DNA of 56,531 nucleotides from an uncultured Candidatus Peribacteria bacterium (GTDB lineage: Bacteria > Patescibacteriota > Gracilibacteria > UBA1369 > UBA12473), in assembly GCA_964436935.1 (NCBI GenBank), contig CAYTES010000003.1, forward strand, positions 1-56,531. Reading direction: 5' to 3'. The notes below the pieces were generated by a model that was given only the letters and a program-made list of their open reading frames with translations, searched no databases and had not been told where the DNA came from. The position numbers and the translations under genes are program-made. How positions within the stretch are numbered: the stretch's first letter is position 1; each line of letters begins with the position of its first letter. Shown here piece by piece: positions 10,458-55,150 of this stretch.

Positions 10458-11366
10458 TTATTGATTCAACATTTTCTCGCATCGAAGCACCTCATCCACC
10501 GAACCGATATAGATCGGCGTGCATTGATCAAAAGATTCAATCAACTGATCCAAAATGGGTTGTTTTCCATTCGAAGCGGCCCCACCGGCCTGCTCCACAA
10601 GATAAGCCATGGGAGCGCATTCAAAAAGCAACCTTAATTTCCCTCGAGGAGCATGAGAATAACCGGGATAAGAAAAAATCCCTTTCCCTTTGATTAAGAT
10701 CTGATTAAGGTCCGGAACCATCCCTCCGGAATAACGAAGCGTATACCCTTCCTTCATCCACCAATTCACCAATTCAAGATAATCCGGCCGATCATAACTG
10801 GCCCGGAGATTGCCCGGGGAAAACATTTTACCCTCTCCGATCTTTAAATGAGATTTTGAAAGGCGCCATTCATCATCGGGAAAAAGACGGTACTCATGAG
10901 TTCCCTCCCCACGAGAAAGCACCAAGGTGGTACGGGGACCATACACACCAAAACCGGCCGCCACCATTTCGCGGGGAGTACGCCCGATCAAATTTTGAGT
11001 GGCATAAATGCCGAAAATAGTTCCCACCGATAAATTAACATCCACCAAAGAAGAACCGTCCAGCGGATCGTAACAAACCGTATAGGGGCCATCCCCGATA
11101 ATGTGGACCTCATCCAGCTCTTCGGAAATAACTTGAGAAACCAAACGGGTAGAGGTCAATTTTTCTCGAATGATCTGATCCGCCAATACATCCAATGCCA
11201 ATTGATCTTCACCAAAAATATTCTTGGTCCCGGCTTTACCCACTTCCGCAGTATGAATATGCGCCGCAATGGAATGAATGGCATCAGCCAAAGCTTCAAG
11301 CACTAAACCTAAATTGCCTTCAAAATCATTCATAGGGAACGGTGCTTTAAATAAATCAAATCCCAC
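10458..11366 (-). CDS. fbp: fructose-1,6-bisphosphatase class 1
   Basis: GEDQLALDVLAD, DPLDGSSLVD and the signature GKLRLLFECAPMA. An alternative start at 11333 (MNDFEG...) would remove the overlap with gap. Confidence 0.85.
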   Translation of the reverse strand: MGFDLFKAPFPMNDFEGNLGLVLEALADAIHSIAAHIHTAEVGKAGTKNIFGEDQLALDVLADQIIREKLTSTRLVSQVISEELDEVHIIGDGPYTVCYDPLDGSSLVDVNLSVGTIFGIYATQNLIGRTPREMVAAGFGVYGPRTTLVLSRGEGTHEYRLFPDDEWRLSKSHLKIGEGKMFSPGNLRASYDRPDYLELVNWWMKEGYTLRYSGGMVPDLNQILIKGKGIFSYPGYSHAPRGKLRLLFECAPMAYLVEQAGGAASNGKQPILDQLIESFDQCTPIYIGSVDEVLRCEKMLNQ

Positions 11367-12363
11367 GTCCCATCCAACGAATCAGATCAAGAACGCGAGC
11401 CACATAGCCCCATTCATTGTCATACCAGACCACCAACTGAAGAAATTTACCATTCAATACTTTGGTGGAAAGCAAATCCACAATGGCGGACCGTGTATCC
11501 CCTTTATAATCAATGGAGACCAAAGGCTCATCGGATGTGCCTAAGATCGCATTCATTCCCTCACCCTCCACCTTCAAAAAAAGCTCATTCACTTCATCCA
11601 CAGTCACCTCCCGTTTTAAAATCACGGTCATATCCAAAACGGAAACTGAAGGGATGGGAACCCGAAACGCCATTCCATCCACCTTTCCTTTAAGAGAGGG
11701 AATAACCTGGCTAATAGCGGTCATCGCCCCTGTAGTTGTCGGAATAATGGATTCGGTGGTGGCACGGGAACGACGAAAATCCTCAGTACTGGAATTATCC
11801 AACAAGTTTTGGGTATAAGTGAACGCATGGATCGTTGAAACCATCGCGGCATCCACTCCAAAATAGTGTTCCAACACTTTCATGGTGGGAGCCAGCGCAT
11901 TGGTGGTACAAGACGCATTGGAAATCACTTCAAAGTCAGCCGGATTAAATTCTTCATCATTCACCCCCATCACAATGGTACGCACCGCTTCGTCCTTACA
12001 AGGCGCGGTGATAAGCACCTTCTTGGCCCCTGCTTCCAAATGAGGCAAAACTTGAGCTCGGGTGGTAAACTTTCCCGTAGACTCGATCACAATATCCACG
12101 CCCAAGTCTTTCCACGGAGCGCGAGCCGGATCCGATTCCTGAAAAACCTGCACCACATTCCCGTTCACCTTTAAATCTTTCCCCTCCACCTCCACCAAAG
12201 CATCCAGAGTGCCATAAACGGAATCCCTTTTCAGAAGCAACGCATGAGAATGCGCATCCGCACGACTATTGATACCAACGACAACCACATCTTCACAAGC
12301 AAGCAACTGACGATGCAATGCGCGTCCAATACGACCATAACCATTAATGGCAATTCGAATCAT
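11356..12363 (-). CDS. gap: glyceraldehyde-3-phosphate dehydrogenase (paralog 1, in fba-gap-fbp operon)
   Basis: INGYGRIGR Rossmann motif, catalytic SNASCTTN, and WYDNEWGY. Confidence 0.9.
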   Translation of the reverse strand: MIRIAINGYGRIGRALHRQLLACEDVVVVGINSRADAHSHALLLKRDSVYGTLDALVEVEGKDLKVNGNVVQVFQESDPARAPWKDLGVDIVIESTGKFTTRAQVLPHLEAGAKKVLITAPCKDEAVRTIVMGVNDEEFNPADFEVISNASCTTNALAPTMKVLEHYFGVDAAMVSTIHAFTYTQNLLDNSSTEDFRRSRATTESIIPTTTGAMTAISQVIPSLKGKVDGMAFRVPIPSVSVLDMTVILKREVTVDEVNELFLKVEGEGMNAILGTSDEPLVSIDYKGDTRSAIVDLLSTKVLNGKFLQLVVWYDNEWGYVARVLDLIRWMGRGI

Positions 12364-15836: not shown

Positions 15837-15986
15837 CGTTTAAAAATGATAACACAATAATCTAGAGAGGGTAAATTTGTTAATTTGAGCATTGAAGATT
15901 AAAACCAAGACACTTATACTCAAGGAACATTATTCTTGAAGCCCATCTCGGCTTCGTCATCTATCTCCCCTAACTCCCCCGCTCTT

Positions 15987-16994
15987 ATGAAGCCTCGTGT
16001 TGCCATCAATGGATTCGGTCGCATCGGACGAAATACCTTTCGTGCCAATCTTGAAAAAGATAGTTTCGAGGTCATTGCCATCAACGACCTCGGTGACGTC
16101 AACACCTTGGCTCATCTTCTGGAATACGATTCTCTCTACGGGAAAATAAATGGCACGGTGGAAGTATCAGGAAAGGACCTCGTGGTGAATGGAAAAAAAA
16201 TTCATGTCTATTCGGAAAAAAATCCGGCCGACTTACCCTGGAAAAATCAACAAATTGATGTCGTTTTGGAATGCACCGGCTTTTTCACCGACAGAAAAGA
16301 CGCACAAAAACATCTCGATGCAGGCGCTAAAAAAGTAATCGTGAGTGCACCGGGAAAAGAAATGGATCTCACGGTGGTCTTAGGAGTCAACGAGGACAAC
16401 TATGAAGGATCAAAACATCACATTCTCTCAAACGCCTCCTGTACCACCAACTGCTTGGCACCTGTTGCAAAAGTGCTGCATGAAAATTTCAATATCCTCA
16501 AAGGATTGATGACCACCGCTCATTCTTACACCAATGACCAACGCATCCTGGACCTGCCGCACGAAGATCTCCGCCGTGCCCGAGCCGCCAACCTTTCGAT
16601 GATTCCAACCACAACCGGTGCGGCAAAAGCCGTTGGCCTGGTGTTACCCGAACTAGAAGGCAAACTCAATGGAATGGCGATCCGAATTCCCACCCCCACG
16701 GTTTCCATCATAGATTTGGTCGTTGATGTCGAGAAATCCACCACCAAAGAAGAGGTCAATGCCTTAGTCAAAGCCGCCTCCGAAGGTGCGATGAAAGGCT
16801 ACCTCGACTACAGCGAAAAACCCCTCGTCTCGATCGACTACCGCGGAGACGCGCACTCCTCCATCGTGGATGGACTTTCCACCATGGTCATTGGAGGCAC
16901 GATGATCAAAATCATCGCCTGGTACGACAATGAATGGGGCTATTCCAACCGCTTGGTGGATTTGGTGGGGTACATGTCTAATAAAGGACTTTAG
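15987..16994 (+). CDS. gap: glyceraldehyde-3-phosphate dehydrogenase (paralog 2, monocistronic)
   Basis: MKPRVAINGFGRIGRN, SNASCTTNCLAP and WYDNEWGYS. The start is placed at the internal ATG (15987) because the 17 upstream residues of the tracked ORF are not GAPDH-like. Confidence 0.9.
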   Translation: MKPRVAINGFGRIGRNTFRANLEKDSFEVIAINDLGDVNTLAHLLEYDSLYGKINGTVEVSGKDLVVNGKKIHVYSEKNPADLPWKNQQIDVVLECTGFFTDRKDAQKHLDAGAKKVIVSAPGKEMDLTVVLGVNEDNYEGSKHHILSNASCTTNCLAPVAKVLHENFNILKGLMTTAHSYTNDQRILDLPHEDLRRARAANLSMIPTTTGAAKAVGLVLPELEGKLNGMAIRIPTPTVSIIDLVVDVEKSTTKEEVNALVKAASEGAMKGYLDYSEKPLVSIDYRGDAHSSIVDGLSTMVIGGTMIKIIAWYDNEWGYSNRLVDLVGYMSNKGL

Positions 16995-31763: not shown

Positions 31764-32276
31764 ATGCGCAGTGTAAATAAAGTTATTTTACTGGGAAATG
31801 TAACACGCGATCCACAAGTACGTAGCACTCAAAGCGGCCAAATGGTTTGCACCTTCGGAATCGCCACAAATCGAGAATGGATCACGTCGGACGGACGACA
31901 ACAGGGTTCCGCCGAATACACGGAAGTGGTGGCATGGGCTAAATTGGCCGATATCTGCAAAAAATACATCCGAAAAGGAAAATTGGTGTACGTGGAAGGA
32001 TACCTAAAAACTCGAAGCTGGGACACGCCAGAAGGCATTCGTCGCTTCAAAACGGAAGTGGTCATTCAGGATATGATCATGGTGGGGCCCCGAGAAGATC
32101 GAGGTGACGAAGGATTTGAAGAAGCCGTAAGGGAGGCTCAAATGGACGAACCCATTTATGACGATATGGACAGCCCTTTACCCTCGGAAATGGACCAGGA
32201 AATGAGTGCTCCAAAAGAAGCCGCTTCTCCTGCTCCATCCTCCTCGAATCTTATTGATAAAGATTTGGGCCTTTAA
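31764..32276 (+). CDS. ssb: single-stranded DNA-binding protein
   Basis: OB fold [17 protein letters not shown]...FGIATNREW...[31 protein letters not shown]. The linker is acidic and the C-terminus is ...NLIDKDLGL. Confidence 0.85.
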
Positions 32277-37387: not shown

Positions 37388-37915
37388 ATGTCCAAATCCA
37401 AAAATAGATTAATCCTATTAGCCTTCATCGTCGGCCTTATAAGCTTATCCTTTTTAGGATGCCTAAAAAGCGGAAAACTTTCGGAAGTGGAATACAACAA
37501 CGCCATCGTTGAAAAGCTCAATCTAACTTCGGGCGCCATTGAAGAAACCACAACAACCTACGATAATAGTATTCCCAATATTGTGACGGAAGATTCAGAG
37601 ATTGATGCCACCTCGTTACAAACAACAAGTCAATCCGCGGCAGAAAAAATTGCGTTATCGGAGGAGGTGCTTACCCTAAAAAGCAAAAATAGCGACCAAG
37701 AGGAAGCCGTAAAAAGTGAATTTCAAAACTATCTTGCGTTAGCCGAAGAATACTTGAAAGCCTATGATGAGATGCTAACCTATTACTCGGCCAACACTTT
37801 CAAAGAAAATCTGGATGATGTAGCGACCTACGACGAAAAACTTCACATCCAATACAACAAATTCATTGAATCCAACAATAAACTGGTGGATATTTTGGCC
37901 GATTACGTCGAGTAA
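37388..37915 (+). CDS. putative lipoprotein, unknown function
   Basis: Signal peptide with the lipobox-like LSFLGC. The mature part is helical and acidic. Confidence 0.6.
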   Translation: MSKSKNRLILLAFIVGLISLSFLGCLKSGKLSEVEYNNAIVEKLNLTSGAIEETTTTYDNSIPNIVTEDSEIDATSLQTTSQSAAEKIALSEEVLTLKSKNSDQEEAVKSEFQNYLALAEEYLKAYDEMLTYYSANTFKENLDDVATYDEKLHIQYNKFIESNNKLVDILADYVE

Positions 37916-38164: not shown

Positions 38165-38329
38165 ATGGCCATAAAAACTCCTGATTCAGAAGAATATCGA
38201 GATAGAAGTAAAACCCTTCCCGAAATACCTGATAACGATACCGTTAATAAAGAGCGGAAAAGATTGATTGGATACCCTCCATTGTCCCTTCCGCTGTCGT
38301 TCAAGGGATGTTTGGTGATCCTGAATTAA
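38165..38329 (+). CDS. 54-aa ORF, possibly the frameshifted N-terminus of the next gene
   Basis: This is the first sizeable ORF after the 38097 promoter (MAIKTPDSEEYRDRSKTLPEIPDND...). It overlaps the start of 38308..38928 in another frame. Confidence 0.3.
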   Translation: MAIKTPDSEEYRDRSKTLPEIPDNDTVNKERKRLIGYPPLSLPLSFKGCLVILN

Positions 38330-38928
38330 AAAAGAAAATCTATTTAAAAGGAAAAGAATGGGCGACAGGGAAAGATGATCGAAGGATTGCGCGAATCGCT
38401 GGCTGGGCCATATTAGCGGCATCGGCCAACACAGAGGAAGAAAGAGCAGAAGCGTATGGGATTGTAATGGGTAAAATGGATACTCCACACATTGATATGG
38501 CGGCCAATGTAAAAATTGCAGCGGCAATTTTAGCCAATGAAGCCCAAAAACAAGAGCTCTACCGTATGTCTTCCGAAGAACATGAAAAAACTCAGTATTG
38601 GGATATCCACGGAGGAGCTCTTATTGCAATGGCTATCACCGCTCCCACAGGAGAAGAACGATCTAAAATTTATCAAATCGCCAACGAGCGATTGAAAAAA
38701 GGATACAATCATCGATACACCAAAAAAGACATGCTTGTGATGGCATTAACGGCACAAACCGAAGAAGAAAAAAATAAAGCCTTTAAACTAGCGGAAGAAT
38801 ATAGTGATACAAAAAAATACCACAACTTCGTGAATGGATGGGCCAATATTTCATTGGGAATTTTGGGAAGCAAGGATAGAGACCTTGCCATCAAGAGCGT
38901 TGCTGCCCTCATAGAACAAAATGATTAA
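38308..38928 (+). CDS. hypothetical helical-repeat protein
   Basis: Three ~45-aa repeats carry A-x-T-E-E-E-(R/K) cores (ANTEEERAEAYG, APTGEERSKIYQ, AQTEEEKNKAFK). Confidence 0.55.
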   Translation: MFGDPELKKKIYLKGKEWATGKDDRRIARIAGWAILAASANTEEERAEAYGIVMGKMDTPHIDMAANVKIAAAILANEAQKQELYRMSSEEHEKTQYWDIHGGALIAMAITAPTGEERSKIYQIANERLKKGYNHRYTKKDMLVMALTAQTEEEKNKAFKLAEEYSDTKKYHNFVNGWANISLGILGSKDRDLAIKSVAALIEQND

Positions 38929-38981: not shown

Positions 38982-39009
38982 TTGACTTTGAAGTATGAGT
39001 CTCTATAAT
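38982..39009 (+). promoter_or_regulatory. near-consensus sigma-70 promoter for fusA-tuf
   Basis: TTGACT-16 nt-TATAAT. The predicted start site at ~39015-39017 coincides with the 5' arm of element E2. Confidence 0.6.
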
Positions 39010-39014
39010 TTGCC

Positions 39015-39180
39015 AGAACGTATTCGAGATCTAACAATGAGATGACTTTTGCAGGATTTTTGTGTCAGGCTAGGCGCGACGACGAAACCCTATCAATAAA
39101 ACGATAAGGTAAGGAGGCGCAACAACGCATGACGCAAAAAGACAAAAAAGCCACTCAATGGGAGATCTCGAATACGTTCT
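39015..39180 (+). ncRNA. candidate structured 5' leader RNA E2 (166 nt, 18-bp perfect closing stem)
   Basis: AGAACGTATTCGAGATCT (39015-39032) is the exact reverse complement of 39163-39180. Nested helices are 39035-39041/39154-39160 and 39046-39052/39134-39141. It contains AAAACGATAAGG (39098-39109), which is identical to 6578-6589 in E1, and AAGGAGG (39111-39117). Confidence 0.5.
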
Positions 39181-44029: not shown

Positions 44030-44389
44030 ATGGCCACCAAAAAAGGAGAAGGCAAAGCCGGAAAATCCACGGCGGGCAAACAACGCATTCGCATCAAAAT
44101 CAAAGCATTCGATCATAAGGTCATCGATGACACGACTAAAATGATCATTGAAACGGCGGAACGGAGTGGGGCCATTATTTCCGGACCGATTCCCCTACCG
44201 ACTCACATCGAAAAATTCACGGTCAATAAATCCACCTTCGTTCACAAAAAATCACGTGAACAGTTCGAAATTCGAACGCACAAACGATTGATCGACATCA
44301 CCGACAGTACACCCAAAACCATCGAATCCCTCACCACGCTCAGCCTTCCAGCCGGGGTGGACATTGAAATCAAAATGATCACGGAGTAA
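44030..44389 (+). CDS. rpsJ: 30S ribosomal protein S10
   Basis: [40 protein letters not shown]... with a ~17 aa basic N-terminal extension. Confidence 0.95.
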
Positions 44390-44610: not shown

Positions 44611-44705
44611 AATAAAATGATTCACAAGAGTCATAAAAATAGATCATGCTTGACATGGTCTATTTTTTATATTTAAATAAAATCCATCATTTTCTAAAAA
44701 ACACT

Positions 44706-45818
44706 ATGGCACAAACAAACGAAGAAATGAGCCAACCGGAAGTGTCGAAATTGACCGCGCACTTCTTGGAGTTAATGGATGACGACTATGCTCAGCAACA
44801 ATGGGAAAGAAGGAGTAGGAGCGAAACGGCCATGAAGGCTTTTATTCTTGAAAACCTTTGTCCGAACAGCGAAAAATTAACACATCTGTACGAACAGATG
44901 ATTGGAAATCAAATTTTATTTGAATTGAAACAAGCCCGGAAAAAAAACATACTCGAGCTATTGGAAAGAAAAACTCCTCTTGAATTGAGATCGTTGAGCA
45001 AGTCGGTCGAGCTGTTGGAGCCCTTTAGTGAAAACCCCTTCAAGGAGGATATGGCCAATCCCCTCCTTGAAGCCATCGCAAAAACACAACCCAAGCCGAA
45101 CGAATCAAAAAAGTCTAACCCCATAACGGAAAAAGAGATGAAAGAGGTGGTCGCATCAAACCTATTTTCCAGCATAGAAGAAGCAATCGCACTCTATTTT
45201 AAAATTTTACAATACCAATCCCCCAAACAATACAACCGCCTCATGCATATGGATGAAGCACAGTTGGAATGGTGGTATAAGCAAGGCGGAGTCTATCAAG
45301 AAGTGAGAATGTTGCGACTTGTAAAAGAAGAACCCCAAAAACCAAGTCAAACCCCTTCGCCCGAAGTGGAATCCCCTCAAAGGGACCGCCGCCCCCCAGC
45401 CTCCTCCGGTCAAAAAAGAAGAGAAGCACCAAAGGCGACCATGGCGGATTGGAATCGTGCATTTGAAAAAGCCTCACAAGATGCCAATCAAGAACTTGAA
45501 GCCGCGAGAAAGAGAGTAGAATCAGCAGAAAAAAATCTAGGACGAGCAATAAACGATGTGCTCCACGAATTAGAAAACGAAAAAAGACGCACAGAAGCCC
45601 TTGAAGAAAAGTTGTCTCGTGGAATAGAAGTGCTTGAGGTAGGCCTCTCGCAAGTGGAAGAACAGGTTTCCCGTGGGATGAAAGCGGCGGAAGAAGGCGT
45701 TTCGCAGGGAATTCAAATTCTCGAAAAAACCGTTGCCCCGCAACTGGAAAGAGCAGCCAGCTTAGGAAGAAAAGCACTTGGATGGCTCGAAAAAAGGGTG
45801 AATAAGCAAGGAAAATAA
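44706..45818 (+). CDS. hypothetical coiled-coil protein inserted between rpsJ and rplC
   Basis: The start is set at MAQTNEEM. There is a Pro/Ser-rich linker, then a C-terminal region with repeated (L/V)S(R/Q)G segments roughly 8-11 residues apart (LSRGIEVLEVGLSQVEEQVSRGMKAAEEGVSQGIQILEK). Confidence 0.6.
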   Translation: MAQTNEEMSQPEVSKLTAHFLELMDDDYAQQQWERRSRSETAMKAFILENLCPNSEKLTHLYEQMIGNQILFELKQARKKNILELLERKTPLELRSLSKSVELLEPFSENPFKEDMANPLLEAIAKTQPKPNESKKSNPITEKEMKEVVASNLFSSIEEAIALYFKILQYQSPKQYNRLMHMDEAQLEWWYKQGGVYQEVRMLRLVKEEPQKPSQTPSPEVESPQRDRRPPASSGQKRREAPKATMADWNRAFEKASQDANQELEAARKRVESAEKNLGRAINDVLHELENEKRRTEALEEKLSRGIEVLEVGLSQVEEQVSRGMKAAEEGVSQGIQILEKTVAPQLERAASLGRKALGWLEKRVNKQGK

Positions 45819-45999: not shown

Positions 46000-46590
46000 A
46001 TGCCGGGAATTCTAGGCAAAAAAATTGGAATGACACGTCTCATTCAAGACGACGGTCGCGTGATCCCCTTGACGGTGGTCCAGTGTGAACCCAACCAGGT
46101 CACGCAGGTCAAAACCACTGAAAAAGACGGATATCCGGCGGTAGTCTTGGGATTTGGCTCGTTCCAAAAACCAAAAAAGACAAGACCTTTCCGTTTTCAA
46201 CGGGAATTCAAGCTCATTGACGTTAATGGAGAAATGAAAAAGGGAGACGAAGTCAAAGTCGACATCTTTGAAGACGGAGAGGAAGTAAAGGTAACCGCCT
46301 TCTCGAAGGGGAAAGGGTTTGCCGGTGTTATCAAGCGTCACCATTTCCGCAGTGGACCATCTAGTCACGGTTCTCATCACCACAGAGAGCCCGGCTCGAT
46401 CGGTATGTGTGCCAAACCGGGACGTGTATTAAAAGGAAAGCGGATGCCGGGGCACATGGGTAACGAAAAAGTAACCCTTGGTTATGCAAAAGTTGTTTAT
46501 GTGAATCTAGAAAAGAATCTTGTCGGGATCAAGGGGCCAATTCCGGGAGGGAATGGCGAACTGGTCATCATACGCAAAAAATCCAAATAA
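46000..46590 (+). CDS. rplC: 50S ribosomal protein L3
   Basis: MPGILGKKIGMTRLIQDDGRVIPLTVV... Confidence 0.95.
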   Translation: MPGILGKKIGMTRLIQDDGRVIPLTVVQCEPNQVTQVKTTEKDGYPAVVLGFGSFQKPKKTRPFRFQREFKLIDVNGEMKKGDEVKVDIFEDGEEVKVTAFSKGKGFAGVIKRHHFRSGPSSHGSHHHREPGSIGMCAKPGRVLKGKRMPGHMGNEKVTLGYAKVVYVNLEKNLVGIKGPIPGGNGELVIIRKKSK

Positions 46591-50898: not shown

Positions 50899-51267
50899 AT
50901 GATTCAAGTTCAAACTCGCCTGAAGGTGGCAGACAATACCGGTGCTAAAGAAGTGATGTGCATCAAAGTCCTTGGAGGCTCCAAAAGGCGCTATGCCCGA
51001 TTGGGAGATGTCATCGTGGTTTCCGTCAAAGAAGCCGCCCCTCGAGGAGTGGTGAAAAAAAAGAGCGTTCAACGTGCCGTTGTGGTACGACAAACCAAGG
51101 AGGTGGGGCGCATCGACGGAACCTATGTTCGATTCGATGAAAATGCCGTAGTGATCATTGGAAAAGACAATGTACCGAAAGGAACTCGTGTCTTCGGCCC
51201 TGTAGCCCGCGAATTACGGGATAAGGGGTTCTACAAGATTATTTCGCTCGCTCCTGATGTTATCTAA
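50899..51267 (+). CDS. rplN: 50S ribosomal protein L14
   Basis: [33 protein letters not shown]. Confidence 0.97.
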
Positions 51268-51287
51268 TTACTAATTCTGTTAACTAT

Positions 51288-51412
51288 GTTTCACTCAAAA
51301 TCTATTTAGTTCAAGACGGCAAAACATTTATCGCCGAAACGCCCGCCTGAGGCGGGCCGATGAGGCGGAAAATGGAGTAGCCAACACGGAAATAAATGAT
51401 TTTCAGTGAAAC
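51288..51412 (+). ncRNA. candidate structured RNA element, copy A (125 nt) in the rplN-rplX spacer
   Basis: GTTTCACTCAAAATC...GATTTTCAGTGAAAC terminal pairing, nested inner helices, and an apical GCCCGCC-TGA-GGCGGGC hairpin (51341-51357). About 85% identical to 54561-54681 outside the apical segment. Confidence 0.6.
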
Positions 51413-51433
51413 CACTACTAATTAAATAAAGCT

Positions 51434-51763
51434 ATGAAAGTCAAACAAGGAGATAATGTATTGGTTACTGCCGGAAAGAACAAAGGTTCAAAAGGCAAGG
51501 TCATGAAAGTTATGAAGAAAAATGACAAAATTGTTGTTGAAAAAATCAACATGCGTAAAAAACATATTAAGAAAAGCGCGTCAAAACCGGGCGAAATCAT
51601 TACCTACGAAGCTCCAATACACGTCTCAAATGTAAAAGTGGTATGTCCCGGCTGTAATAAAGGAGTTCGCGTAGGGTACACCATCCTGGAAAACGGAAAG
51701 AAACAACGGGTATGTAAAAAATGTCAACAATCGCTGGACAAGCCCGTGGAATCTAAAAAATAA
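51434..51763 (+). CDS. rplX: 50S ribosomal protein L24 with C4 zinc-ribbon insertion
   Basis: KOW motif VKQGDNVLVTAGKNKGSKGKV, plus CPGC...CKKC in the C-terminal half. Confidence 0.93.
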   Translation: MKVKQGDNVLVTAGKNKGSKGKVMKVMKKNDKIVVEKINMRKKHIKKSASKPGEIITYEAPIHVSNVKVVCPGCNKGVRVGYTILENGKKQRVCKKCQQSLDKPVESKK

Positions 51764-51787
51764 CTTCCTTACTAACTCTTCTGAATC

Positions 51788-52300
51788 ATGAAAAAAGTGG
51801 CAACAAAAGAAAATCCAATGGCAATCCCAAGAATCACAAAAGTCAGTATCAATGTGGGAATTGGAAGCTACATTCAAAAAGGTGGGGACAAAAATTTTGA
51901 TCCGGTGATTGAAAATATCAAACGATTGAGTGGTCAAAAACCCATGATAACCAAAGCTAAAAAAGCCATTTCGAACTTTAAATTAAGAGAAGGAATGCCG
52001 GTTGGAGTAGCGGTCACACTGAGAGGCCCCCGTATGAATGATTTCCTTACGCGATTGGTGCATATTGTACTGCCTCGCATCCGGGATTTCCGAGGAATTT
52101 CAGCTCGTGGATTTGATGGGAGAGGAACGTATACCCTTGGAATCAAGGAAATTACCGTTTTTCCCGAAGTGAATCCGGACAACGTAAGTCGTAATCATGG
52201 GGTGCAGATCACAATCAGCACCACAGCCGAAAAGAACACTGAAGGTTACCTCTTATTGAAAGGAATGGGCTTCCCCTTCCGAGATGAACCCAAAGCATAA
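51788..52300 (+). CDS. rplE: 50S ribosomal protein L5 (short N-terminus)
   Basis: IPRITKVSINVGIGS...MPVGVAVTLRGPRMNDFLTRL. Confidence 0.93.
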   Translation: MKKVATKENPMAIPRITKVSINVGIGSYIQKGGDKNFDPVIENIKRLSGQKPMITKAKKAISNFKLREGMPVGVAVTLRGPRMNDFLTRLVHIVLPRIRDFRGISARGFDGRGTYTLGIKEITVFPEVNPDNVSRNHGVQITISTTAEKNTEGYLLLKGMGFPFRDEPKA

Positions 52301-52316
52301 ATTATAACCCTATCCA

Positions 52317-52541
52317 ATGGCTCGTACAGCGCTCATCGTCAAATGCAAACGACTTCAAACCGAACACATGAAAGCTCTTGCGAGCGGAAAAGATCCGGTG
52401 AATCCAACTCGTGTTTACAACCGCTGTGAACGCTGTGGAAAGATTCGAGGATTCATGCGACGATTTGGACTCTGTCGTATTTGCTTCCGCAACCTTGCCG
52501 GAGAAGGCCTGATCATGGGGGTTCGAAAATCTTCATGGTAA
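52317..52541 (+). CDS. rpsN: 30S ribosomal protein S14 (zinc-binding type, 74 aa)
   Basis: [22 protein letters not shown]. Confidence 0.93.
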
Positions 52542-52583
52542 TCCATCGTCACTCACCAACCACTAAACGCTAACCGTTTCCTA

Positions 52584-52967
52584 ATGAATACCGATCCTAT
52601 CGCCGACATGTTGAACCGCATTGGAAATGCCAAAAAGGCGAGACACGAACAATTGACTCTCCCTTATTCCAAAATTAAAATGGAAATCCTTAAAGTAATG
52701 GAATCCAATCGATTCATTGAAAAAGTTTCCATCAATAAACTGGGTCAGTTTCAACATTTGGAAATCAAATTATCTTCCACGAAAGATACAATTTCTTTAA
52801 AAAGAGTATCCAAACCTGGACAACGAATTTATATAAAAGCAGATGAAATAAGATCGGTATTGAATGGATTGGGAATGACCATCCTTTCAACGCCAAAAGG
52901 AGTCATGAGTGGGAAAGATGCAAGAAAGCATAAAGTCGGAGGCGAGTTGCTCTGTGAGATCTACTAA
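52584..52967 (+). CDS. rpsH: 30S ribosomal protein S8
   Basis: DPIADMLNRIGNAKKARHEQLTLPYSKIK. Confidence 0.95.
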   Translation: MNTDPIADMLNRIGNAKKARHEQLTLPYSKIKMEILKVMESNRFIEKVSINKLGQFQHLEIKLSSTKDTISLKRVSKPGQRIYIKADEIRSVLNGLGMTILSTPKGVMSGKDARKHKVGGELLCEIY

Positions 52968-52996
52968 TCACCTATTAACTGTTAAAAACTTAAGCC

Positions 52997-53548
52997 ATGT
53001 CACGAGTAGGCAAAAAAAACATTTCAATCCCAAAGGGAGTCACGGTAACCTATGAAAACGGAGTAATTACCGTAAAAGGTCCAAAGGGAGAACTAACCTT
53101 TACGCATCACCCTCTCATGCAAGTGATACTGTATGAAGATGCCGTACAAATCAAAAGACCCGGGAATGAAAAAATTCATAAGAGCTTACACGGTCTAACA
53201 AGAAGTTTGGTCCAGAATATGGTCACCGGAGTGTCGGTTGGATTTTCCAGACGGTTGGAGGTGAATGGAGTGGGTTATCGCTTCCAAGTTCAAGGAAATA
53301 AATTGGTACTAAGCTTAGGCTATTCTCACCCCATCGAATTCATCGCTGAAAAAGGAATTGAGGTCAAAGCGGATGAAGAAAAGAAAAATGTGATCATTGT
53401 ATCAGGTATGGATAAGCAAAAAGTGGGTCAAGCAGCCGCAAAAATCCGTGAATTCAGAAAACCTGAACCTTACAAAGGGAAAGGAATTAAATACGAAGAA
53501 GAAGTGATTCAAAGAAAAGCTGGTAAAACAGCGGCTAAATCGTCTTAA
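52997..53548 (+). CDS. rplF: 50S ribosomal protein L6
   Basis: MSRVGKKNISIPKGVTVTYENGVITVKGPKGELT. Confidence 0.95.
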   Translation: MSRVGKKNISIPKGVTVTYENGVITVKGPKGELTFTHHPLMQVILYEDAVQIKRPGNEKIHKSLHGLTRSLVQNMVTGVSVGFSRRLEVNGVGYRFQVQGNKLVLSLGYSHPIEFIAEKGIEVKADEEKKNVIIVSGMDKQKVGQAAAKIREFRKPEPYKGKGIKYEEEVIQRKAGKTAAKSS

Positions 53549-53565
53549 TAACCTTTTAATTCATC

Positions 53566-53907
53566 ATGTTTAAGAAAAATATTCTCCGACAAAGACGTCA
53601 TCATAAGATTAAAACGAAGATCAAGGCGACTTCCGATCGTCCTCGATTGGTGGTATACCGTAGTCTTCAGTCAATTTATGCTCAGTTGATCGATGATGCC
53701 CAAGGAAAAACATTGGTTTCATCTTCCGATATGAAAGTCAAAAAGGGAACAAAGATGGAACGTGCCGCCCATGTTGGCAAAGAACTGGCTGAAAAGGCAA
53801 TGGCACTAAAAATTGAAACCTGCGTCTTTGATCGAAACGGATACAAATACCATGGCCGTGTAAAAGCGGTTGCAGAAGGAGCACGTGAAGGAGGATTGAA
53901 ATTCTAA
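53566..53907 (+). CDS. rplR: 50S ribosomal protein L18
   Basis: [20 protein letters not shown]...[26 protein letters not shown]. Confidence 0.95.
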
Positions 53908-53973
53908 TTATCACTAAGCTATACTTAAACTCAGGTTCACCCTTCGATCAATTTAATAACTTTACTTAGAACA

Positions 53974-54531
53974 ATGTCTTACCCCAACAATAACAATAAG
54001 AATAACAACAAGCGCGGACCACGAATGCAGGAAGTGAAAGAATTTGATGAAGAAGTCATTCAACTTGACCGCGTGACCCGTGTGGTGAAAGGGGGACGAC
54101 GTATGCGTTTTCGTGCCACGGTCGCCATTGGGAATCGAAAAGGGAAGGTGGGGATTGGAATAGGTAAATCGGCCGAAGTCGTCGGTGCAATTAAAAAAGC
54201 CGTCACCATGGCCAAGAAAAATCTAGTTAAGGTCCCTATTTATAAAGAAACCGTACCTCATCGTATTCAAGTTAAATTCAAAGCCTCAAAAATCTTGTTG
54301 ATGCCAGCGGGAGCGGGAACCGGAATCATTGCCGGAGGGGCAACGCGTAAAATCATCGAATTGAGCGGAATCAAAAATATTTTGAGCAAAAGTCTGGGAT
54401 CCTCAAATCGAGTGAACACCAGCAAGGCGACCATGAAAGCATTGATGGAATTACGACCTAAAAACGAAGTGAAAGTTCAAGAAAAAGCTAAAGTTGAAGA
54501 GTCGAAAGAAACTAAAAAAGAAGTTGAATAA
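53974..54531 (+). CDS. rpsE: 30S ribosomal protein S5
   Basis: VIQLDRVTRVVKGGRRMRFRATVAIGNRKGKVGIGIGKSAEV. Confidence 0.95.
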   Translation: MSYPNNNNKNNNKRGPRMQEVKEFDEEVIQLDRVTRVVKGGRRMRFRATVAIGNRKGKVGIGIGKSAEVVGAIKKAVTMAKKNLVKVPIYKETVPHRIQVKFKASKILLMPAGAGTGIIAGGATRKIIELSGIKNILSKSLGSSNRVNTSKATMKALMELRPKNEVKVQEKAKVEESKETKKEVE

Positions 54532-54560
54532 ATAATGGTTAATAAAAAATTTCTATATAT

Positions 54561-54681
54561 GTTTCACTCAAAATCGATATAGTTCAAGGCAGCAAGCCAT
54601 TTATCTCCGAGGCGCACAAAAGGTACGACGAGGTGAAAAATGGTGAAGCCAACACCGAAATATGTCGATTTTCAGTGAAAC
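54561..54681 (+). ncRNA. candidate structured RNA element, copy B (121 nt) in the rpsE-rplO spacer (rpmD slot)
   Basis: It has the same termini and conserved blocks as 51288-51412 (CATTTATC, AAAATGG, AGCCAACAC, GAAATA) with a different apical segment. Confidence 0.6.
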
Positions 54682-54706
54682 CCTAATAAACTAACTCTAA
54701 AAAATA

Positions 54707-55150
54707 ATGCAGCAAAACGAACTCAAATCGACTCCAGGCGCACGAAAAAGTAAAAGACGTTTGGGACGAGGAAATGGTTCAGGACGTGGAACCTACTCCG
54801 GTCGGGGGGGGAAAGGTCAAACGGCTAGGGCGGGTGGTAAATTACGCATAGGATTTGCAGGAGGTCAAACTCCCCTGATGATGCGTATGCCTAAATTGGG
54901 TGGCTTCAAAAACATCAATCGTGTGGAATATGCGGTCATCAATGTAGGACTTTTAGGAGAAAACTACAAAGAAGGAGAAATCGTCGATCGAAGCAGCTTG
55001 ATTGAAAAACGACTTTTAAAAAAGACCTCTAAGCCCATTAAAGTATTGGCAACCGGAGAAATCAAGGTCGCCTTAACCGTGAAGTTGGATAAGATCTCAG
55101 AAGCCGCAAAAGCTAAAATTATAAATGCTAAAGGCACTGTTGAATGCTAA
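54707..55150 (+). CDS. rplO: 50S ribosomal protein L15
   Basis: RRLGRGNGSGRGTYSGRGGKGQTARAG. Confidence 0.95.
   Translation: MQQNELKSTPGARKSKRRLGRGNGSGRGTYSGRGGKGQTARAGGKLRIGFAGGQTPLMMRMPKLGGFKNINRVEYAVINVGLLGENYKEGEIVDRSSLIEKRLLKKTSKPIKVLATGEIKVALTVKLDKISEAAKAKIINAKGTVEC

Follow-up and report, generated by a model that had tools for sequence, protein, structure and literature searches.

Irregular hairpins with internal loops lie between cistrons at the RNase III signals of T7 and T3, and a similar RNase III site is found between rplL and rpoB in E. coli. Such sites leave the downstream start codon free and are repeated along one transcript; they measure ~50-60 nt, are not dispersed in the genome, and their cleavage has been shown experimentally. 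Longer structures are formed by the ERIC (IRU) elements, imperfect palindromes of ~127 nt that sit in transcribed intergenic regions, in operons or untranslated regions. ERIC elements fold into long RNA hairpins and have been reported to alter the stability of the flanking mRNA segments. Structured RNA also occurs upstream of cistrons in ribosomal-protein operons, as in the S8/spc, S4/alpha, and L4/S10 mRNA leaders, which mimic rRNA, are single-copy, and keep a fixed junction across related taxa. The Correia elements (CREE or NEMIS) of Neisseria are intergenic units of ~100-155 nt with inverted-repeat arms, found in many contexts and often just 5' of genes, in 100-250 copies per genome and in both orientations. 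They insert at TA with a duplication, can create promoters, and carry IHF sites. In mRNA they form hairpins that RNase III binds and cleaves, which alters the fate of the message (PMC2649163).

A structure of this general kind was found in the DNA of an uncultured Candidatus Peribacteria bacterium. Its copies, at least four of which are present in this organism, make up a dispersed family of inserted hairpin-forming repeats between co-directional genes, and compensatory changes preserve the hairpin on the sense strand of the neighbouring genes. The copies are best read as a new family of intercistronic structured RNA repeats akin to the ERIC or Correia elements, the kind itself being known. 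The likeness to Correia elements is architectural and drawn from descriptions, and no sequence similarity is claimed; unlike them, the present element has no consistent duplication and no promoter-like hexamers, its four known copies in this genome are all sense, and the whole element forms a rod with co-varying pairs. ERIC elements belong to another host phylum, differ in sequence, are more numerous, and lie in either orientation; since only the architecture is alike, membership in that family cannot be claimed. Relative to the T7, T3, and rplL-rpoB sites, the element is longer and genome-dispersed, and its cleavage is presumed. In contrast with the ribosomal-protein leaders, it is absent from all relatives, lacks sequence similarity to the rRNA of E. 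coli, and is not confined to ribosomal-protein operons.

The ribosomes of CPR bacteria have been reported to have lost L30 (PMC10221324). The first-pass annotation of the window, i.e., the whole stretch of 56,531 nucleotides that was analysed, had described the slot of the missing L30 gene, between rpsE and rplO, as devoid of any ORF of 60 aa or more and as occupied by the second copy of a structured element. Both statements are confirmed, with no ORF of 30 aa or more on either strand of the 175-nt spacer and a hairpin at 54561-54682 (z -5.7). The two junctions that carry the element in the window comprise the following features.

50899..51267, + strand: rplN (L14), gene 5' of copy A (window ORFs; Pfam annotation of the identical gene)
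51268..51433, + strand: rplN-rplX intercistronic spacer, 166 nt (0-32 nt in relatives)
51288..51413, + strand: copy A, the same hairpin with a GC-rich apex, GCCCGCC-UGA-GGCGGGC (fold, covariance-model matches)
51434..51763, + strand: rplX (L24), gene 3' of copy A (window ORFs; Pfam annotation of the identical gene)
53974..54531, + strand: rpsE (S5), gene 5' of copy B (window ORFs; Pfam annotation of the identical gene)
54532..54706, + strand: rpsE-rplO intercistronic spacer, 175 nt (2-43 nt in L30-less relatives)
54561..54682, + strand: copy B, rod-like hairpin of ~122 nt (fold, covariance-model matches, covariation)
54683..54691, + strand: conserved 3' tail of copy B, CCUAAUAAA (flank comparison)
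54707..55150, + strand: rplO (L15), gene 3' of copy B (window ORFs; Pfam annotation of the identical gene)

From its base upward, copy B consists of helix P1 (GUUUCACU/AGUGAAAC), a conserved C·C mismatch, a P2 of 12 bp, a G·A mismatch, and P3, followed by conserved internal loops, helix P5 (CCAUUU/AAAUGG), and a variable apex. Its minimum free energy (MFE) is -41.7 kcal/mol vs. -22.6 +/- 3.3 for dinucleotide shuffles, none of 200 being equally stable, and it scored 150, 147, and 138 bits in three covariance-model scans. Copy A has an MFE of -49.3 kcal/mol (z -7.0) and scored 153, 141, and 124 bits in the three scans; the two copies are ~77% identical over aligned positions. A 17-mer from the basal arm occurs four times in the window at up to three mismatches, namely in both arms of A and B, while the chance expectation is 0.38 and none of 100 shuffles reaches four. 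No further copy was detected in the window by pattern search or by an exhaustive covariance-model scan. From the end of the hairpin to the next ATG there are 20 nt in copy A and 24 nt in copy B, much as first noted (21-25 nt), and neither of the two spacers contains a sigma-70-like promoter or an intrinsic terminator.

Copy C came to light when the contig was followed past the end of the window and scanned again with the covariance model (first match 105 bits, E 1e-22). A spurious 33-aa ORF is called over this copy, and the element was therefore translated along its mostly open frame and used as a query against protein collections, which led to copies D, E, and F. The four copies outside the window are located as follows, the scores of F, D, and E being those of the six-copy model R3.

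L246 16600-16724: copy C, in the 188-nt rpsD-rpoA spacer, same genome, ~6 kb past the window; best score 136 bits
L257 3664-3793: copy F, between gatB and a probable membrane-protein gene, same genome (GCA_000999445.1, LCJI01000027.1); 132 bits
L253 73-225: copy D, upstream gene off the contig and a weakly MscS-like membrane-protein gene downstream, on a 552-nt contig from Hainich groundwater, Germany; 130 bits
L255 637-761: copy E, between an SPFH/Band-7 gene and an ORF with an RsmE-like N-terminus, from another organism, on an 848-nt groundwater contig; 134 bits

Copy F begins 25 nt after the gatB stop codon and had scored 98 bits with an earlier model, R2. The gene after copy E may encode an RsmE-like protein, to judge from its N-terminal sequence. 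At least four copies are thus present in this organism, at rplN-rplX, rpsE-rplO, rpsD-rpoA, and gatB-membrane-protein gene, and at least two on groundwater contigs from other samples. All six are sense to the flanking genes, D, E, and F having been found through + strand ORF calls, which represents an ascertainment bias; all have a same-strand gene downstream and five also upstream, the upstream neighbour of D being off the contig. The elements measure ~120-155 nt, and the hairpins start 20-68 nt after the upstream stop codon and end about 10-84 nt before the next start codon. In the same genome, model scans free of that bias yielded three copies within ~19 kb of the ribosomal-protein cluster, as opposed to none in a further ~56 kb. 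This distribution may reflect the density of short intercistronic junctions, high expression, or chance; with copies F, D, and E, the family extends beyond ribosomal operons.

In a control scan with the model, 665 kb of unrelated metagenome sequence, harboring the basal 15-mer in every contig, gave nothing above 18 bits. The 15-mer itself, GTTTCACTSAAAATC, is too short and returned only chance matches, 120 stretches in metagenome contigs and 91 in viral contigs, all with single matches and none with the element. Two-arm and three-block patterns gave 0 and 6 chance matches, respectively, in viral contigs, and the covariance model rejected the six; BLAST against plasmid and phage collections found no match to the element. 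Two matches of the protein search were discarded. One (P0126) is a low-complexity repeat protein, and the other (P0123) comes from an unrelated 53-nt tandem array that scores at most 6 bits with the covariance model. An array of this type, with ~14 copies of a 53-nt unit, occupies L266 3-722 (JGI Ga0451569_038074), and its translation mimics the VQGSKPF stretch of the spurious ORF of the element.

Whether the element has anything to do with the missing L30 can be judged from related loci. DNA identical to the window is present in the Rifle-aquifer assemblies AMFJ01, ANAN16-1, and GCA_000999445.1, with 'ACD_28' protein names. The closest homologues of its S5, at 59-76% identity, belong to MAGs labelled Peribacteria, Peregrinibacteria, and Gracilibacteria, and the best match to its L15 in a collection of 5.8 billion proteins is 66% identical, that collection holding no nearer relative. 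Fourteen L30-less relatives from the Peribacteria, Peregrinibacteria, Gracilibacteria, and Saccharibacteria were compared. Their S5-L15 spacers span 2-43 nt in ten relatives obtained by genome scan and 28-38 nt in four nearer ones reached via L15 homologues, vs. 175 nt here. Similarly, the L14-L24 spacer measures 0-32 nt in relatives vs. 166 nt here, and the S4-rpoA spacer 58 nt in the one relative covered vs. 188 nt here. In L30-containing loci, the S5-L15 gap of ~290 nt encloses a gene of 57-60 aa. None of three covariance models detected the element in the ribosomal-protein junctions of the relatives, no spacer in their ribosomal-protein clusters forms a comparable hairpin (no z below about -3.3), and BLASTN of the element against the first 26 related loci gave no match. 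Since the spacers of the relatives are short and free of the element, copies A and B are later insertions.

Eight L30 genes from loci that retain L30, together with an E. coli L30 sequence not taken from a database record, were combined into an L30 profile, which was searched with --max over the stop-to-stop segments of all six frames of the window. It found no match in 54532-54706, and its best match in the window (E = 2.1) lies outside the rpsE-rplO spacer; hence, L30 is absent from its canonical slot, with no recoverable frameshifted remnant. The frameshifted rpmD-like ORF that the first-pass annotation had named as a possible objection was thus searched for with the L30 HMM and is not there. 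Its suggestion that the element might be a remnant of the L30 deletion lacks support, there being no L30 coding trace in the six frames of the window, and the 14 L30-less relatives, with their 2-43-nt S5-L15 spacers devoid of the element, speak against a role as a stand-in for L30. It had also envisaged that L30-less genomes might have short spacers and the element be private to this bin, with no covariation; the spacers are short indeed, but other organisms carry the element and its pairs co-vary. The state of the slot after the loss of L30 is a plain short spacer, which is ancestral, and the rplN-rplX junction of copy A never held a gene. Because copies also sit between unrelated genes and in other groundwater bacteria, the element has no connection to the lost L30, and its place in the former L30 slot is a coincidence. 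A false lead is thereby removed: the loss of L30 in CPR bacteria neither left behind an RNA element nor led to replacement of the gene by one.

The six copies are mutually 61-77% identical, the divergence within the genome being equal to that between organisms. In a six-sequence MAFFT alignment, for which RNAalifold predicts 44 pairs, 94.7% of the cells are standard pairs, as compared with 85.3 +/- 1.3% in column shuffles (0/500 reach the observed value) and 34-42% in slid registers. As many as 16 of the 44 pairs have changed on both sides, vs. 6.7 +/- 1.8 in column shuffles and 2-5 in slid registers. The wobble cells are asymmetric, with 17 G·U vs. 3 A·C (binomial P = 0.0026). The MFE values of the RNA on the two strands (kcal/mol) are the following.

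Copy A: + strand -49.3; - strand -50.8
Copy B: + strand -41.7; - strand -42.3
Copy C: + strand -49.6 (7 G·U pairs); - strand -27.8
Copy D: + strand -70.0; - strand -65.1
Copy E: + strand -52.0; - strand -46.9
Copy F: + strand -43.8; - strand -40.7

The + strand fold is favored in C, D, E, and F, and A and B are equal on both strands. The evidence for constraint at the RNA level is unusually clean.

Across the six copies, no variation is seen in the CUCAAAAU/AUUUUCAG duplex with its central C·C mismatch, in the loop stretches CAAG...GCAAG and G.AG..AC, or in the CCAUUU/AAAUGG helix. A purine·A mismatch is present in every copy, as G·A in five and as A·A in copy E. Variation is free in the outermost helix and at the apex, and copy D has an extra small hairpin, a 24-nt insertion, in one internal loop. 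Related short tails follow all six hairpins (CCUAAUAAA, CCUAAUUAA, CCUCUA, CCACUA; consensus CCUAAUWAA or CCUCUA). A TATAAT-like box lies between copy D and its downstream gene, and that copy may therefore not be co-transcribed with the gene.

The element corresponds to no Rfam family. With Rfam 15 at gathering thresholds, the sole match in the window is a tRNA-Glu; with permissive filters and E values up to 10, the region 51200-54800 gave four chance-level matches of at most 14 bits, and the Rfam covariance models, including all known ribozyme classes and 6S RNA, leave the element unmatched. Six conserved motifs compared with the 16S, 23S, and 5S rRNA of E. coli, which stand in for the rRNA of the host itself, gave no exact match and none at one mismatch beyond chance. 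Two coding interpretations were rejected. A mini-ORF, MFHSKSI*, is shared by A and B with two synonymous differences, but in copy C the ATG is missing and the reading differs, with both changes balanced by changes in the 3' arm. A longer frame that is open in B, C, and D is interrupted in copy A and has no Pfam match in precomputed annotations.

The arms of the element form inverted repeats (e.g., GTTTCACTCAAAATC / GATTTTCAGTGAAAC), whose outermost bases co-vary rather than being fixed. A flanking direct repeat is conspicuous for copy A only (8 nt, P about 0.02), that of copy B being marginal and at a different offset, and for C, F, D, and E no repeat exceeds chance expectation; with no consistent target-site duplication, the element is not a classical MITE. 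Integron attC sites, which are strand-specific imperfect palindromes between co-directional cassettes, are delimited by R'' (RYYYAAC) and R' (GTTRRRY) core sites. In the alignment of the present elements (A10), the ends read GTTTCAC, GATTCAC, GATTCGC, GGCTTAC, and GGCGC, with complementary 3' ends; an attC site was rejected, as a conserved GTT core is lacking and no integrase gene lies in the vicinity.

As for function, a role in mRNA processing or stability, which the first-pass annotation had proposed, is probably still the best guess. We favor, with moderate confidence, the view that the element is a processing or stability module for host RNA between cistrons, in the form of a hairpin recognized in the polycistronic mRNA. 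Its position suggests that it would be transcribed as part of such an mRNA. The basal CUCAAAAU/AUUUUCAG duplex with its fixed C·C mismatch, set within a near-continuous helix of ~21 bp, might together with the internal loops constitute the recognition site. The recognizing factor could be a double-strand-specific RNase of the RNase III type or another RNA-binding protein; no RNase III gene was found among the scanned proteins of the window. By analogy with the Correia elements and the T7 sites, the recognized hairpin would then act as a module for processing or stability between the flanking cistrons. In a minimal version of this model there would be no positive function, the fold being kept so that the 125-nt insert loops out and leaves the neighboring translation signals undisturbed; selection for such 'harmless folding' would yield the same covariation.

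The chief alternative is that of a selfish element moving as single-stranded DNA. The repeats would be non-autonomous mobile DNA, either MITE-like or derived from an HUH/Y1 element of the IS200/IS605 type, and would have no function for the host; the hairpin would serve transposition of single-stranded DNA or be merely tolerated, and the orientation bias would follow the direction of replication. This possibility, which we regard as unlikely but deserving of serious attention, agrees with the scattering of copies over unrelated contexts and more than one organism, with the empty matching sites in relatives, and with arms that form an inverted repeat of invariant inner sequence. The lack of a consistent target-site duplication is as expected for insertion of the IS200/IS605 type, and a strand-specific fold is also expected of single-stranded DNA, since with DNA parameters copy C folds at -20.8 kcal/mol on the + strand vs. 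-11.3 on the - strand; movement as single-stranded DNA would account for the orientation bias as well. However, there is no transposase near any copy nor in the roughly 100 kb examined, and searches of plasmid and phage collections and of viral contigs found no match to the element. Covariation in P1, the outermost helix, is unexpected for ends bound by a transposase. Moreover, the copies within the genome are as diverged as those between organisms (61-77%), yet remain ~95% paired. So much divergence alongside intact pairs points to purifying selection that has acted on the fold over a long time, rather than to recent amplification and decay.

A bolder form of the processing hypothesis is doubtful in our view. 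The element would represent an undescribed cis-acting RNA class of uncultivated groundwater (CPR) bacteria, in which the C·C duplex and the loops form the site of a dedicated protein or a catalytic core, and it would cut the long ribosomal-protein transcript into segments of differing stability. If so, these lineages would possess a way of their own of setting the stoichiometry of ribosomal proteins, SecY, and RpoA.

It is improbable that the element is a functional RNA of a kind other than a nuclease substrate, such as a self-cleaving ribozyme, a platform or decoy for a global RNA-binding protein, or an excised small RNA. The invariance of the CAAG...GCAAG and G.AG..AC loops and of the C·C mismatch, along with the retention of the purine·A mismatch, exceeds what maintenance of a helix would need, and several copies per genome are present, all in the sense orientation. 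In contrast, no Rfam family is matched, known ribozymes and 6S RNA included, the overall shape is a simple rod, and the apex is freely variable, with a 24-nt insertion in a loop of copy D.

Finally, regulation of ribosomal-protein operons, through an autoregulatory binding site or as a successor or remnant of L30, is largely refuted and must be considered very improbable, since, although three of the four known copies in this genome lie within the S10-spc-alpha cluster (three in ~19 kb, none in ~56 kb elsewhere in unbiased scans) and each copy ends 20-43 nt short of the start codon that follows, F, D, and E are neighbors of gatB, MscS-like, and SPFH/rsmE-like genes, every ribosomal-protein junction of the relatives is free of the element, L30-less relatives have spacers of 2-43 nt, the window holds no L30 remnant, and E. 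coli rRNA shows no sequence similarity to the element. We know of no report of L24, L15, or RpoA acting as a translational repressor. The autoregulatory site common to L24 and L15 that had initially been put forward is very unlikely, given the copies at rpsD-rpoA, at gatB-membrane-protein, and beside the SPFH/rsmE-like and MscS-like genes, in part non-ribosomal genes of other organisms.

To our knowledge, almost nothing is known of regulation at the RNA level in this phylum. The present family is a structured RNA repeat new to Rfam, with covariation and strand specificity. If its members are processing sites, they would show how a bacterium with a reduced genome subdivides a ribosomal-protein transcript of ~20 kb. 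If the family is confirmed, the element may also be a marker by which these lineages can be followed through groundwater metagenomes.

Several other features of the window and its neighborhood were recorded. A near-consensus sigma-70 promoter (TTGACT-16-TATAAT, 11/12 matches) is found at 38982-39009 of the window, directly followed by a different rod hairpin of 166 nt, with 36-nt arms (39015-39050 / 39145-39180) that are 81% complementary (z -6.45). The 3' arm of this hairpin, whose sequence is unrelated to the repeat element, covers the annotated fusA start codon at 39158, and the promoter and hairpin together (38982-39180) look like a structured fusA leader. The usual gene order of the str operon is split by two ORFs of 175 and 206 aa between rpsG and fusA (37388-37915 and 38308-38928), neither with a Pfam match. 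In the S10 operon, a 390-aa ORF without Pfam match (44646-45818) lies between rpsJ (44030-44389) and rplC (46000-46590). A ssb gene (31764-32276; Pfam SSB, E 1e-33) is located between ORFs of 1206 and 1271 aa, which from their size and position are taken to be rpoB and rpoC.

Downstream of rpsI, ~8 kb past the 3' end of the window, the region L246 19147-19449 folds with an MFE of -106 kcal/mol (z -8.8). It contains a perfect 20-bp GC hairpin and an AT-rich hairpin of ~100 nt at a convergent gene junction, has no Rfam match, and probably represents bidirectional terminators. The rplQ (L17) gene appears to be split in the ENA assembly (L246 17777-18192) into a 99-aa ORF without Pfam match and a 38-aa L17 piece, and the NCBI assembly of this organism has two called ORFs in place of one for rpsE (L247 8944-9388); both could be due to frameshifts or to assembly differences between genome versions. 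Two GAPDH paralogues, ~3.5 kb apart, are encoded on opposite strands of the window (11356-12363, - strand; 15936-16994, + strand), beside FBP aldolase and FBPase genes, and they explain the presence of a 25-nt inverted repeat of 96% identity (11404-11428 / 16919-16943).
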